A DNA stretch of 64,000 nucleotides from assembly GCA_966210515.1 (NCBI GenBank), contig CBIHLM010000003.1:14215-78214 (forward strand), read 5' to 3'. Below are positions 23,224 through 29,533 of this stretch, piece after piece (position 1 is the stretch's first letter; each line of letters starts with the position of its first letter). The notes under the pieces were generated by a model. That model ran no database searches and was not told where the DNA came from. It saw only the letters and a program-made list of their open reading frames with translations. Origin of the DNA: an uncultured Pedobacter sp. (GTDB lineage Bacteria > Bacteroidota > Bacteroidia > Sphingobacteriales > Sphingobacteriaceae). The translations under genes were made by a program, and so were the position numbers.

Positions 23224-23994
23224 ATGAGAGCACTCTACACCATTATCATTCTATTTGCCATGCTAAGCTGCAACTCAGATAGGCAAATAGAAACAGTTGA
23301 AGATTCTGTTGCTATTGATTCTATGGAATCAAACGGCACCCTAACCGACACTACTGATATAACTCCGCAGTCAGTGCAAAAAGCTGGAGAAGTTAAAATA
23401 TTCAAAGGGCTTTATTCGTTCGGCAACGAAGTGAGCACTTTTCGCGAGTGTGAAAAACCCGGCAAACTTTACTGGCTGGAAGATGAGAGCAATAAACTTT
23501 CTTCAGCATATAAAAAAGCTACTGAATTTTTGTCGTACCCATACGAGAGTGTATATATTGAGGTTAAAGGATATTTAAAAGGCAAGTCGAATATTGGATA
23601 TGCCGAAGAATATGAAAACGTGCTGATTGTAACAGATCTGATCTCTTTAAAACCAAAATCCTACCGAACTGAATGTTTTAATTATGAATTTATTTGCTTA
23701 GGCAACGAGCCTTTTTGGTCGCTTGACATTCTTCCGGATGAAAAGTTGATAGCATTAAAAGATGTGGGAAGTGAAAAAACCTACACCTTTCCCTATAGTG
23801 CTGGTAAAATTGTCGGCAACACGATAACATTTCAGACATCCAATGATAAGAAAGAAACGCTAGAAGCTGTGATTACAAGGGAAAACTGCAGCGATGGCAT
23901 GTCTGACAGAGTCTATATTCACTCTGCCAAAGTAACAATTAATGGTAAAACGCTAAAAGGCTGCGCTATTAAACAAGGTGATAGTCTCAAATGA
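23224..23994 (+). CDS. Hypothetical lipoprotein (NlpE-C OB-fold-like plus COG3650-like domain)
   Basis: Lipobox MLS|C; FKGLYSFGNEVSTFRECE; GNEPFWSL and CSDGMSDRVY..GCA motifs. Confidence 0.7.
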   Translation: MRALYTIIILFAMLSCNSDRQIETVEDSVAIDSMESNGTLTDTTDITPQSVQKAGEVKIFKGLYSFGNEVSTFRECEKPGKLYWLEDESNKLSSAYKKATEFLSYPYESVYIEVKGYLKGKSNIGYAEEYENVLIVTDLISLKPKSYRTECFNYEFICLGNEPFWSLDILPDEKLIALKDVGSEKTYTFPYSAGKIVGNTITFQTSNDKKETLEAVITRENCSDGMSDRVYIHSAKVTINGKTLKGCAIKQGDSLK

Positions 23995-25725: not shown

Positions 25726-25755
25726 AGGAGCAGAAAAAAACTGCTCCTTTTTTTT
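25726..25755 (+). terminator. pgi intrinsic terminator
   Basis: AGGAGCAG-AAAAAAA-CTGCTCCT followed by a T run. Confidence 0.9.
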
Positions 25756-25781: not shown

Positions 25782-25808
25782 GCAACCAGAGCTCAAGAAG
25801 TTCCGTAC
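25782..25808 (+). promoter_or_regulatory. Candidate ECF-sigma promoter (GCAACC-N16-CGTAC)
   Basis: -35 AAC-core and -10 CGT-core at 16-nt spacing, just after the pgi terminator and 25 nt before the sigma ATG. Confidence 0.6.
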
Positions 25809-25833: not shown

Positions 25834-26403
25834 ATGAACTCGCCTGATATAAAACATATCTTATCCGGATGTAAATCCCGCGACCGTAAAAGTCAGAAGG
25901 AGCTTTACAAGCAATACTTTGGATTTTCGATGAAGATATGTTTACGCTATGCGGAACACAAAGAGGAGGCTGTAGAAATAGTAAATGACGGTTTTATGCG
26001 CGTGTTTACAAACATCAGCAAATACGACGAAAGCAGGCCGTTTAAATCCTGGCTTAGTACCATAATGATTAATACCTCAATAGACTATTACAGGAGAAGA
26101 ATAAGACGTACGAAGATGGAGGAATTAAACAGCAATCATGAACTGGAAGAGCATGAACATATTTTATCAAGGATAAATTATGAGGATTTAATAAAACTAG
26201 TACAAAAGCTTTCAACCGGCTATCGTACGGTTTTTAATTTGTTTGTTATTGATGGCTACTCGCACGAAGAAATTTCAGCGATGCTTTCAATATCTGTTGG
26301 CGCTTCGAAATCAAACTTATTTAAAGCGAGGCATAAATTAAGAGAGATGTTAAGCTCCATTGAAACTGACACATCAGGGCCCAGGACTTTTGAAATATCA
26401 TGA
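25834..26403 (+). CDS. ECF RNA polymerase sigma factor
   Basis: Sigma2 region (EAVEIVNDGFMRVF, FKSWLSTIMINTSID) and sigma4 region (FNLFVIDGYSHEEIS..VGASKSNLFKAR). Confidence 0.95.
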   Translation: MNSPDIKHILSGCKSRDRKSQKELYKQYFGFSMKICLRYAEHKEEAVEIVNDGFMRVFTNISKYDESRPFKSWLSTIMINTSIDYYRRRIRRTKMEELNSNHELEEHEHILSRINYEDLIKLVQKLSTGYRTVFNLFVIDGYSHEEISAMLSISVGASKSNLFKARHKLREMLSSIETDTSGPRTFEIS

Positions 26404-27614
26404 AAGAATTATCTGACAAAAAGTTTGATGAGCTACTAAAGCAAAAAGCAGAATCTGCGGATTTTTTCTTTGATGAATCTGCATGGGATAAGATGGAGCA
26501 AAAGCTCCGCAGAAGAGACCGTGTGATTTTTATCAGGAACAGCAGTTTTGTTCTGATGCTTCTTTTTCTTTTTGGTGGAGCTTATTGGCTGTTAAATGGA
26601 GATTCTATAAGTGAGAGCAGCAACCAAAATGTACAAAAATCTGAAACTTTAAAGCCCGGGAACGAGACTATTTTACATGGGGACAAGAATAAGTCGCCGA
26701 TTAAAACAAAGGCAGGAGAAAAAGCAATTGCTGAGGCATCTTTAGGTTCTGAGAAACGATCAGCAATTAAAGCTGCTTCAACTAAGAAAACAAATGAAAA
26801 GAGTTTATTGGTCAGGGAGAATGCAATCGACAAACCGTCCAGTTTAAGCATGTCAGACAGCTCTGAGTTTATACCTTTTGTACAACTAGACCGTCTAAAT
26901 GCATCCGATAACAAATTCCCCGAACCAGAAGAAGATTTAATAATTGCCTCAGCTGAATTTGAAAACGACACGATAAAATCCAAGCCTGAAATAAAGAACT
27001 CTCCTAAGAATAGGAAACTGAGCTTTAGTGTAACAGCCTTAGCCGGGCCGGATTTTAGTTCAGTTGAATCAATTGCCGGAAAAAAAGGCAATTTAAATAT
27101 AGGATTACTTCTAAATACGACCATATCAAAAAAGATCACTCTAAGCTCGGGAGTTAAATACGGATTGAAATCTTATGCAGCCAGTGCTTACGATTATAAA
27201 CTAAAGAACCCATCACGAGCAGATAAAATTTCAGGGATTGATGCATCCTGTAATATCCTCGAAATTCCGTTGCAGATTTCCTATTCATTGTTCCAAAACA
27301 AGAACAATCATATAAAATTATCATCGGGTCTGTCATCGTACCTCATGCTAAAAGAAGAATATAATTTCAAATACACGCCTCAATCGGGTTACAAAGATTA
27401 TTTGCTGGTAAAAAACAATGCAAACCAGCATTACTTAAGCGTGTTGAACCTGGCGGCCAGTTATCATATAAAACCCAAATCTGCTAACATTCAATGGGCA
27501 ATAGAACCTTATGTGAAACTACCATTGGGAGGAGTTGGGGAAGGAAATGTGCGTTTAAAATCAAGTGGAATTTCATTGAATATGACTTATGATATCACTA
27601 AGAAAAATAAATAA
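26400..27614 (+). CDS. Putative dual-membrane-spanning anti-sigma factor (cytoplasmic domain, TM helix, low-complexity tether, small outer-membrane beta-barrel)
   Basis: ATGA overlap with the sigma gene; ~40-aa N-terminal domain (FDELLKQK..AWDKMEQKL), one TM helix, ~140-aa K/S/E-rich linker, then amphipathic beta-strands (LEIPLQISY, IEPYVKLPL..GISLNMTY). Confidence 0.75.
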   Translation: MKELSDKKFDELLKQKAESADFFFDESAWDKMEQKLRRRDRVIFIRNSSFVLMLLFLFGGAYWLLNGDSISESSNQNVQKSETLKPGNETILHGDKNKSPIKTKAGEKAIAEASLGSEKRSAIKAASTKKTNEKSLLVRENAIDKPSSLSMSDSSEFIPFVQLDRLNASDNKFPEPEEDLIIASAEFENDTIKSKPEIKNSPKNRKLSFSVTALAGPDFSSVESIAGKKGNLNIGLLLNTTISKKITLSSGVKYGLKSYAASAYDYKLKNPSRADKISGIDASCNILEIPLQISYSLFQNKNNHIKLSSGLSSYLMLKEEYNFKYTPQSGYKDYLLVKNNANQHYLSVLNLAASYHIKPKSANIQWAIEPYVKLPLGGVGEGNVRLKSSGISLNMTYDITKKNK

Positions 27615-28152: not shown

Positions 28153-29082
28153 ATGCAAAAAATCTACACAAGTATAGTCGTACTATTCCTTTTCAATTGC
28201 TGCGTCTTTGCGCAGGATACAGATTCGCTGCTACAGTCGCTTGACTCATCTAAATATGCAGGAGGTAAAACCAGCGCTACGTTTAAGTCGACCAGAATAG
28301 TTTTGTCGCATTCGAGCGAAACTCAAAAAAAACATGATTTGGATTTACGCATCCGTCATCATTTTGGAGATATCGGAGAGGAATTTGGTAGTTCACATAC
28401 ATTGTTTGGACTTGACGGAGCTACAGACCTTTATATTGGCTTGGACTTCGGACTAACAGATAAATTAACCCTGGGTATCGGCAGAAGTAAACGCGAAGAA
28501 CTCTATAATTTTTTCATTAAACAAAAAACGATTCAACAAAGTCAAAGAATTCCACTTACGATCACACTTCTTGGGCAGGCCGGAATTATTGCCAGAGAAG
28601 AAAATTTTAATAATGAATTTAATGGCGACTCGACCAGGAACAGCTACTTACTTCAGGCAATCATAGCGAAAAAGTTTTCAGAACATCTTTCTTTGCAAAT
28701 TTCACCAACCTACCTGCTTCGCTCTGAACATATCGCTTTTGGCGATCAGCAAAATCTTTTCAGTCTGGGCTTTGCAGGTAGATTCAAATTAAGCAAGCGG
28801 CTCTCTTTGATCGGCGACTATCAACTTGTGAATGCTTTCGGCCGCCCGGACAGCTTTTCTGAAAGCTATTTTAACCCGCTTGGCGTCGGATTAGAAATTG
28901 AAACCGGCGGACACGTATTTTCTCTCAACTTCATGAATTCCGAATATATTATTGAAAACAACTTTCTGCCGGAGACAAAAAAGTCGTGGAATGATGGAGG
29001 TGTACGCTTCGGATTCACTATCTCAAGAAATTTCAGTCTCGGAAGATCAAGGAATCCGGATACCCAATCAAAAATCTATTAA
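28153..29082 (+). CDS. DUF5777-like outer-membrane beta-barrel protein
   Basis: TFKSTRIV, IRHHFG..TLFGLD, GVGLEIETGGHVFSLNF and FGFTISRNF; signal peptide VFA|Q. Confidence 0.78.
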   Translation: MQKIYTSIVVLFLFNCCVFAQDTDSLLQSLDSSKYAGGKTSATFKSTRIVLSHSSETQKKHDLDLRIRHHFGDIGEEFGSSHTLFGLDGATDLYIGLDFGLTDKLTLGIGRSKREELYNFFIKQKTIQQSQRIPLTITLLGQAGIIAREENFNNEFNGDSTRNSYLLQAIIAKKFSEHLSLQISPTYLLRSEHIAFGDQQNLFSLGFAGRFKLSKRLSLIGDYQLVNAFGRPDSFSESYFNPLGVGLEIETGGHVFSLNFMNSEYIIENNFLPETKKSWNDGGVRFGFTISRNFSLGRSRNPDTQSKIY

Positions 29083-29092
29083 ACAGCACGTT

Positions 29093-29533
29093 ATGGAAAG
29101 AGACGAATTTTTAAAAACACTGGGAATCAGCTTTGCTCTGGCATGTACAGGCACCTGTTTTCAGGCTTGCAGCAAAAGTGGAGATGACGACGACACTGGA
29201 ACGCCAAACTCCGGCAGCAATACTGTTAATGTGGATATTTCGACAATGGGATCGGTTGGGAGTCAGACCACCGTAAACGGAGTACTATTCTTTAGAATTG
29301 CTTCAGAAAACACAGCATCATCCTTTGTTGCTACAGAATCAGCATGCCCGCATCAGGGCAATCCCCTTACATGGCAACAAAATAATAATAGAATCTTTTG
29401 CAGCCTACATTCTTCAACGTATACATCCGCTGGAGCGGTAACAAATCAGCCAGTTGGCGGAGGGAGCACGAGAGCCCTTAAGATTTATTCTGTGACATTA
29501 GCAGGCACCACTTTAACAGCGACAAAGACTTAA
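29093..29533 (+). CDS. Rieske [2Fe-2S] lipoprotein with Tat-like leader
   Basis: CPHQG and CSLHS ligand motifs; leader MERDEFLK..FQA|C. Start reassigned to ATG 29093. Confidence 0.85.
   Translation: MERDEFLKTLGISFALACTGTCFQACSKSGDDDDTGTPNSGSNTVNVDISTMGSVGSQTTVNGVLFFRIASENTASSFVATESACPHQGNPLTWQQNNNRIFCSLHSSTYTSAGAVTNQPVGGGSTRALKIYSVTLAGTTLTATKT

Follow-up and report, generated by a model that had tools for sequence, protein, structure and literature searches.

A probable Dma-type anti-sigma factor of Pedobacter and its predicted link, through an ECF sigma factor, to a conserved YceI/DUF5777/Rieske operon

What does an anti-sigma factor whose C-terminal half looks like an outer-membrane barrel regulate, and how would it reach the sigma factor in the cytoplasm? 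These questions are raised by two overlapping genes in a 64,000-nucleotide (nt) stretch of an uncultured Pedobacter sp. (contig CBIHLM010000003.1, positions 14,215 to 78,214; hereafter the window), which encode an extracytoplasmic function (ECF) sigma factor and a 404-residue protein (open reading frames 25834-26403 and 26400-27614, both on the plus strand). The sequence-only reading of this DNA had paired the two genes by an ATGA overlap, and the coordinates bear this out, the anti-sigma ATG at 26400-26402 overlapping the sigma TGA at 26401-26403. The best explanation of the locus as a whole, which we consider highly likely, is that an envelope-spanning anti-sigma factor of the dual-membrane-spanning (Dma) type holds an ECF sigma factor that drives a five-gene operon. 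New here is the well-supported link of a Dma subfamily to an unstudied, conserved envelope redox/lipid module and to a sharply defined promoter. The sigma factor and the four parts of the anti-sigma factor are laid out as follows.

25834-26403, plus strand: ECF sigma factor, 189 residues (Pfam and NCBIfam domains), placed in the Dma-associated (Das/ECF21-like) clade by its tree
26400-26537, plus strand: anti-sigma residues 1-46, predicted cytoplasmic two-helix domain, presumed to bind the sigma factor (conservation, AlphaFold2)
26538-26597, plus strand: anti-sigma residues 47-66, single predicted inner-membrane helix, N-in (hydrophobicity, AlphaFold2, KLRRRDR on the N side)
26598-27014, plus strand: anti-sigma residues 67-205, predicted disordered K/S/E-rich periplasmic tether (predicted local distance difference test score, pLDDT, <50; unalignable)
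27015-27614, plus strand: anti-sigma residues 206-404 and stop codon, predicted 8-stranded OMP_b-brl_2-type beta-barrel (AlphaFold2, Foldseek, profile homology)

The anatomy of the 404-residue protein was derived from an alignment of 45 homologs (32-81% identity to it) and from an AlphaFold2 model built on that alignment. Residues 1-46 are polar, end in KLRRRDR and are conserved among the homologs, with F9, D10, W29, M32, E33, K35 and L36 invariant ahead of the basic RRRDR cluster. The hydrophobic stretch at about 47-66 was the single predicted transmembrane (TM) helix, with conserved mid-helix glycine(s) and without a cleavable signal peptide; the model placed helices at 6-18 and 26-66 and assigned residues 67-207 a pLDDT <50. 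The linker (15% S, 13% K and 11% E over residues 67-205) varied in length from 106 to 178 residues (median 136) and was unalignable in sequence, and this combination of a held length with a free sequence is as expected of a spacer. The well-conserved C-terminal 200 residues were modelled at pLDDT ~90 as eight strands (208-221, 230-241, 246-261, 277-299, 303-325, 334-357, 364-375 and 387-399), and the strands within residues 206-404 alternate hydrophobic and polar positions. From the secondary-structure listing of the model, short connections (242-245, 300-302 and 358-363) and longer ones (222-229, 262-276, 326-333 and 376-386) could be told apart, which we infer to be the periplasmic turns and surface loops usual in outer-membrane barrels. 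A Foldseek search of the PDB returned 8-stranded outer-membrane barrels at the top, namely the OmpA TM domain, NspA, Ail, OmpX and OmpW (E 1e-8 to 1e-5, target-normalised TM-score 0.56-0.71). The Dma-like design read earlier from the letters, with an N-terminal domain, one TM helix, a tether and a beta-strand domain and no cleavable signal peptide, thus held up in both the sequence features and the model: the anticipated 8-stranded, OmpA-like barrel and disordered linker were obtained, and the soluble periplasmic fold of the C-terminal domain that was named as refuting it was not seen in the AlphaFold2 or Foldseek results.

A protein of this kind is not without precedent. The Dma/Das design was published for Bacteroides thetaiotaomicron (PNAS 2024; PMC10927553, PMC13088901), and the Dma family is defined by the same four parts beside an ECF21 sigma factor; ECF21 sigma factors adjoin Dma proteins only in Bacteroidota, and Dma1 was reported in 27 of 29 Bacteroidota, soil dwellers included (PMC10927553, PMC13088901). 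The earlier claim that the locus was the best candidate for an undescribed system in the window consequently fails, because these papers define the class and report it across Bacteroidota including soil species. The family is also thousands strong: when 1.84 billion cluster representatives were searched with a profile, 2,695 proteins matched at E<=1e-30, counted as clusters at 50% identity, and 8,398 at E<=0.001, most of the matches being 380-550 residues long with full-length coverage. The system is already known in kind, and forms a distinct subfamily within a published, very large family.

The closest described counterpart is Dma1/Das1 (BT_4721/BT_4720) of B. thetaiotaomicron, with the orthologs Reo/EcfO of B. 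fragilis, in which the same kind of ECF sigma factor is co-transcribed with a four-part anti-sigma factor (PMC10927553). In both, a cytoplasmic domain of about 40 residues (predicted in the window's protein) leads into a single TM helix and a long linker that is disordered, and the C-terminus is an 8-stranded barrel of the OMP_b-brl_2 kind; both types are confined to Bacteroidota. Residues 1-40 of Dma1 bind Das1 in a pull-down, and Dma1 was located in both membrane compartments (PMC10927553); by analogy, residues 1-46 of the window's protein are presumed to bind its sigma factor, and the polypeptide would likewise span two membranes. The sigma factor itself matched Sigma70_r2 (E 6.7e-14), Sigma70_r4_2 (E 1.1e-13) and Sigma70_ECF in Pfam and the sigma70-ECF superfamily in NCBIfam (87.5 bits against a cut-off of 42.9). 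In a maximum-likelihood tree, all 18 Dma-adjacent sigma factors, the window's included, fell into one clade (support 96/94) that takes in NigD-linked sigma factors of Bacteroidales (Muribaculaceae), while 7 other ECF sigma factors of the same genome lay outside it; this placement points to a Dma-associated, ECF21-like sigma factor.

Membership in the Dma family was judged by architecture, sigma phylogeny and profile homology of the barrel. In hhalign comparisons the barrel profile matched five flavobacterial-type Dma-like proteins from a scan of the phylum with 99.4% probability (E 7e-22), and a 29-sequence Muribaculaceae profile more distantly, with 95.3% probability (E 2e-8, 76 columns). The N-domain profile, covering the first 50 residues, matched the flavobacterial type with E 4.8e-6, and its conserved Trp stands in the same register in the Bacteroidales type. 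The Bacteroidales side of these comparisons consisted of proxies, Muribaculaceae proteins encoded in the order nigD-sigma-dma, as in BT_4719-4721. A search for NigD_N (PF12667) had matched 1 of 201 genomes of the phylum, and there not beside a sigma gene; an order-level NigD search yielded two genomes with the nigD-sigma-dma order, whose relatives carry the names Muribaculum and Duncaniella. To the extent that sequence and fold prediction can tell, the assignment of the 404-residue protein to the Dma type is right.

Several observations weigh against the explanation favoured here, and the loci without output genes counted below belong with them. The protein ends in ...TYDITKKNK, without the aromatic residue with which outer-membrane barrels usually terminate; the Pedobacter-type group as a whole ends in ...TYD-x-x-KK-x, whereas the other Dma-type proteins compared end in Phe or near it. 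Its match to OMP_b-brl_2 (PF13568, residues 223-352) scored 23.4 bits against a gathering threshold of 27 (E 6.8e-5), the same family being recorded above threshold for many homologs. The N-domain similarity to the Bacteroidales type was not significant (E 0.074), and homology to the founding B. thetaiotaomicron Dma1 rests on the Muribaculaceae proxies. The missing terminal aromatic beta-signal and the low barrel score, together with the report that B. thetaiotaomicron vesicles held only C-terminal fragments of Dma1 (PMC10927553), would suit an ordinary single-pass anti-sigma factor, whose beta-domain serves as a periplasmic sensor or partner binder or is inserted only after cleavage, with no polypeptide crossing two membranes. 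We regard this as improbable, given a model with a closed 8-strand barrel at pLDDT ~90, alternating strands and short turns set against long loops, top Foldseek matches that are all integral outer-membrane barrels, a tether whose length is held while its sequence drifts, and the detection of full-length Dma1 in total membranes (PMC10927553).

Could the protein instead be no anti-sigma factor at all? No curated anti-sigma family of Pfam or NCBIfam matched the 404-residue protein, and residues 1-46 gave no domain match. A FecR-type protein is not indicated, as no FecR or STN domain was found in Pfam or NCBIfam and the operon holds no TonB-dependent receptor. Class I anti-sigma domains have four helices and about 80-90 residues, often with an HxxxCxxC zinc motif. 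When the protein was compared with this class (ZAS/RsrA/RseA-like), its cytoplasmic part proved to be just 46 residues long, had no Cys/His motif and gave no zf-HC2 or RskA match. The lack of a recognised domain in residues 1-46 would fit an outer-membrane protein that keeps its signal-anchor uncleaved and is co-transcribed with the sigma gene by chance. This we hold to be extremely improbable: residues 1-46 rank with the best conserved stretches of the protein, and their motif recurs in paralogs and in distant Dma-like proteins, those of the flavobacterial type included. In a comparative set of one locus per species (L005-L084, 80 loci), moreover, the sigma gene lay directly upstream of the anti-sigma gene in 77 of the 77 loci with room to see it, stop and start codons often overlapping. 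A paralogous locus of the same genome (contig C2:11282-13521) even splits the design: an ECF sigma gene (37% identity to the window's) is followed by a 244-residue protein that has the N-domain, TM helix and linker and lacks a barrel, and then by a separate 261-residue OMP_b-brl_2 protein (PF13568, E 2.5e-11), which carries a signal peptide of its own. This separation shows that the N-terminal part is a functional unit.

What, then, would a Dma-type anti-sigma factor control in this genome? The pair opens a compact unit, which is bounded at its 5' end (25726-25748) by the strong terminator of the upstream pgi gene and is followed at its 3' end by a convergent gene. Its remaining features are these.

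25726-25748, plus strand: intrinsic terminator of pgi, the upstream gene (8-pair stem with 5 GC, then TTTTTTTATT)
25782-25807, plus strand: predicted autoregulated ECF-type promoter (motif GCAACC-N16-CGTA), with 26 nt between its end and the sigma start codon
27589-28146, plus strand: YceI-family protein with a signal peptide (PF04264, E 1e-10), overlapping the anti-sigma gene by 26 nt
28153-29082, plus strand: DUF5777 outer-membrane barrel protein (PF19089, E 1e-80), beginning 6 nt past the YceI gene
29093-29533, plus strand: small exported Rieske [2Fe-2S] protein (CPH...CSLH; PF00355, E 1.2e-7), the last gene of the unit, 10 nt past the DUF5777 gene

The overlap of the YceI and anti-sigma genes is kept in relatives, as is the position of the Rieske gene, and YceI and DUF5777 are each encoded once in the genome. 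We found no mention of DUF5777 in the literature searched. In 53 of the 80 species loci the YceI, DUF5777 and Rieske genes directly follow the pair. Only YceI and DUF5777 follow it in 1 locus and only Rieske in 3, and in 4 more YceI and DUF5777 stand elsewhere in the locus, upstream, divergent or convergent. None of the three genes occurs within 4 kb in 18 of the 80, so the output is not universal for the subfamily; no shared alternative partner was found in these 18 loci, many of the pairs being bicistronic with a convergent gene next. In P. africanus, all five genes stand together in an unrelated chromosomal neighbourhood, and in locus L090, from another class of the phylum, a sigma factor, an anti-sigma factor, a cytochrome c-like protein, YceI and DUF5777 are encoded in a row. 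A small cytochrome c-like lipoprotein (CxxCH) accompanies YceI and DUF5777 at L072:2835-3191 and L090:2321-2812, in place of the Rieske protein or in addition to it, which suggests that the redox partner of the module is interchangeable.

The Rieske protein begins MERDEFLKTLG... (29093-29180), a twin-arginine-like export signal with just one arginine, and several cysteines occur in the hydrophobic region after this start. Its ortholog in L073 reads MERNEFIKSLG.

Of 80 distinct orthologous regions preceding the sigma gene, 72 contain the motif GCAACC-N16-CGT(A), compared with a mean of 0.02 and a maximum of 1 among shuffled regions, and the copy at 25782-25807 is the only exact GCAACC-N16-CGTA match in the 64 kb of the window. 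Within the window's operon we found neither a second motif nor a convincing terminator, and the weak sigma-70-like matches there occur at chance frequency. Most telling are two rearranged loci, L072 and L073. Here the sigma gene and the YceI operon are divergent, and between them the motif is present twice, once in each orientation; the copy directed at the YceI operon stops about 42 nt short of that operon's first gene, which encodes the cytochrome c-like lipoprotein in L072 and a 282-residue lipoprotein in L073. The conserved operon, the copies that are rearranged yet remain linked and the doubling of the promoter motif together suggest that the sigma factor very probably autoregulates and drives the YceI/DUF5777/redox-protein module, and the same three lines of comparison lend support to the earlier proposal of a different output, the downstream YceI/DUF5777/Rieske genes and not a vesiculation regulon.

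A different view of this arrangement would make the sigma/anti-sigma pair and the three downstream genes mere neighbours, the latter being transcribed by read-through or from a housekeeping promoter of their own and the true regulon lying elsewhere. The 18 loci without the trio agree with this, as do the sigma-70-like matches within the operon and the genome-wide count of the strict motif, which at 6 copies in 4.7 Mb equals chance level. We nevertheless judge it very improbable. The 26-nt overlap and the gaps of 6 and 10 nt leave the genes tightly packed, 53 species have the trio right after the pair, among them one with a different chromosomal context, the divergent YceI operon has its own copy of the sigma factor's motif, and the linkage recurs in another class.

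Among the 6 genomic copies of the strict motif, two are sensibly placed, the sigma promoter and a site on contig C15, 61 nt before a gene for a 456-residue lipoprotein without a Pfam match (C15:71926-73296; region 71926-73383). The variant GCAAC[CAT]-N16-CGTA stands at the same place in 5 of 6 same-genus orthologs of this gene, which makes it a fair candidate for a second target of the window's sigma factor. We found no published ECF21 promoter consensus in the literature searched.

Two Muribaculaceae nigD-sigma-dma loci (L109:5271-5400 and L112:5362-5486) share a different sequence before nigD, TGCAAGA ... CGGATTTA. There are hints that the Bacteroidales branch of the sigma clade has a distinct promoter specificity.

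If an envelope-spanning Dma-type protein indeed holds the sigma factor, the system might work as follows. At rest, the 46-residue cytoplasmic domain would keep the ECF sigma factor at the inner membrane, the single helix would cross that membrane, the disordered tether of about 140 residues would cross the periplasm, and the C-terminal 8-stranded barrel would be seated in the outer membrane. By analogy with Dma1/Das1, changes in the outer membrane or at the cell surface would be detected by the barrel, or by its surface loops. The tether might then be cut first and the helix cleaved within the membrane afterwards, as in the regulated proteolysis of other anti-sigma factors; proteolytic activation would thus follow their example, and an M50 site-2 protease is encoded in the genome, as such proteases are universally. 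The released sigma factor would transcribe from GCAACC-N16-CGTA, a single promoter yielding the sigma factor, the anti-sigma factor, the YceI lipid/isoprenoid-binding protein, the DUF5777 barrel and the exported Rieske protein. In the genus, the 456-residue lipoprotein encoded elsewhere would probably be driven as well.

What signal might set this in motion? Two elements of the barrel are conspicuous for their conservation. C284 (27249-27251), the sole Cys of the protein, is unchanged across the 45 homologs and sits close to the outer end of the 23-residue strand 277-299, and the strongest conservation in the whole family falls on the last predicted surface loop and strand 8, PLxGVGEGxVxLKSSG. 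EcfO/Reo of B. fragilis affects oxidative-stress tolerance (PMC10927553); from this effect, and from an output composed of YceI, a barrel and either an iron-sulfur or a cytochrome c protein, one may reasonably guess at a redox or lipid-damage signal, though the guess is a doubtful one. In its fuller form the guess is that the subfamily acts as a surface sensor of oxidative or lipid damage that switches on a periplasm-to-outer-membrane module for quinone or electron handling, which we rate as unlikely but worth stating. C284, in its long outward-facing hairpin, and the loop PLxGVGEGxVxLKSSG would be the candidate sensing elements of such a sensor, and the module would consist of the YceI carrier, the DUF5777 barrel and, as their partner, a Rieske or cytochrome c protein.

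Set beside systems already described, the locus differs in its output, among other points. The partners and regulon in Bacteroides are NigD-like lipoproteins and vesiculation, or oxidative-stress tolerance in B. fragilis, whereas the window's are YceI, the DUF5777 barrel and Rieske, and the promoter GCAACC-N16-CGTA differs from the sequence shared by the two Muribaculaceae loci. Dma2/Das2 (BT_1558/BT_1559) has the same four-part design and lies in a short operon with gene(s) of unknown function (PMC13088901), but Dma2 was reported in the genus Bacteroides only, and its operon partner BT_1557 is unrelated to the window's genes (PMC13088901). FecI/FecR/FecA likewise conveys an outer-membrane signal to an ECF sigma factor through a single-pass inner-membrane anti-sigma factor; it does so with three proteins, including a TonB-dependent transducer and the periplasmic domain of FecR, whereas in the window one polypeptide would do both jobs. 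The likeness to RseA and sigma-E of E. coli lies in the probable sequential site-1 and site-2 (M50) proteolysis on outer-membrane trouble; RseA, however, ends in the periplasm and senses unfolded porins via DegS, while the sensor proposed here would itself be an outer-membrane barrel. E. coli yceI-yceJ (cytochrome b561) and other YceI-redox pairs likewise join a small redox protein to a lipid/isoprenoid binder of the YceI family, but the E. coli partner is an inner-membrane cytochrome b, in contrast to the exported iron-sulfur protein and DUF5777 barrel of the window.

How widely, finally, is the design spread? A Dma-like match was present in 52 of 301 sampled genomes of the phylum, and the named loci came from Pedobacter, other Sphingobacteriaceae, Mucilaginibacter, Chitinophaga and one Prolixibacteraceae metagenome-assembled genome, the best species-level match being 69% identical; the window's host is accordingly a Pedobacter-like organism. 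The genome itself holds two further sigma/Dma-like pairs, the split locus described above and one at C11:70767-73160, where the gene of a 188-residue sigma factor overlaps that of a 454-residue Dma-like anti-sigma factor whose barrel is 24% identical to the window's. The GCAACC motif was absent upstream of the C11 pair, and a 149-residue lipoprotein without a family match follows it; an assignment of this lipoprotein as NigD-like was rejected for want of Pfam support.

Apart from its module and promoter, the locus adds one more ordinary case to a very large family. The regulons published for Dma proteins, of NigD lipoproteins, hint little at function. The output of the present subfamily, by comparison, is compact, and its parts, a binder of lipids or isoprenoids, a barrel of the outer membrane and either an iron-sulfur or a cytochrome c protein, hint at a function; the subfamily is found in many aerobic soil species. 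With the sharply defined promoter, this makes a promoter-reporter a practical means of screening for the inducing signal, and would open a first functional entry to DUF5777. Were the sensor reading true, aerobic Bacteroidota would possess a redox stress response of the envelope for which no counterpart has been described, and there would be a first clue to the signal of any Dma protein.

Two genes upstream of the sigma gene, at 23224-23994, lies a lipoprotein gene encoding an NlpE C-terminal OB domain (PF17185, E 2.7e-7). This gene stands at the same place in Pedobacter superstes and Desertivirga brevis.

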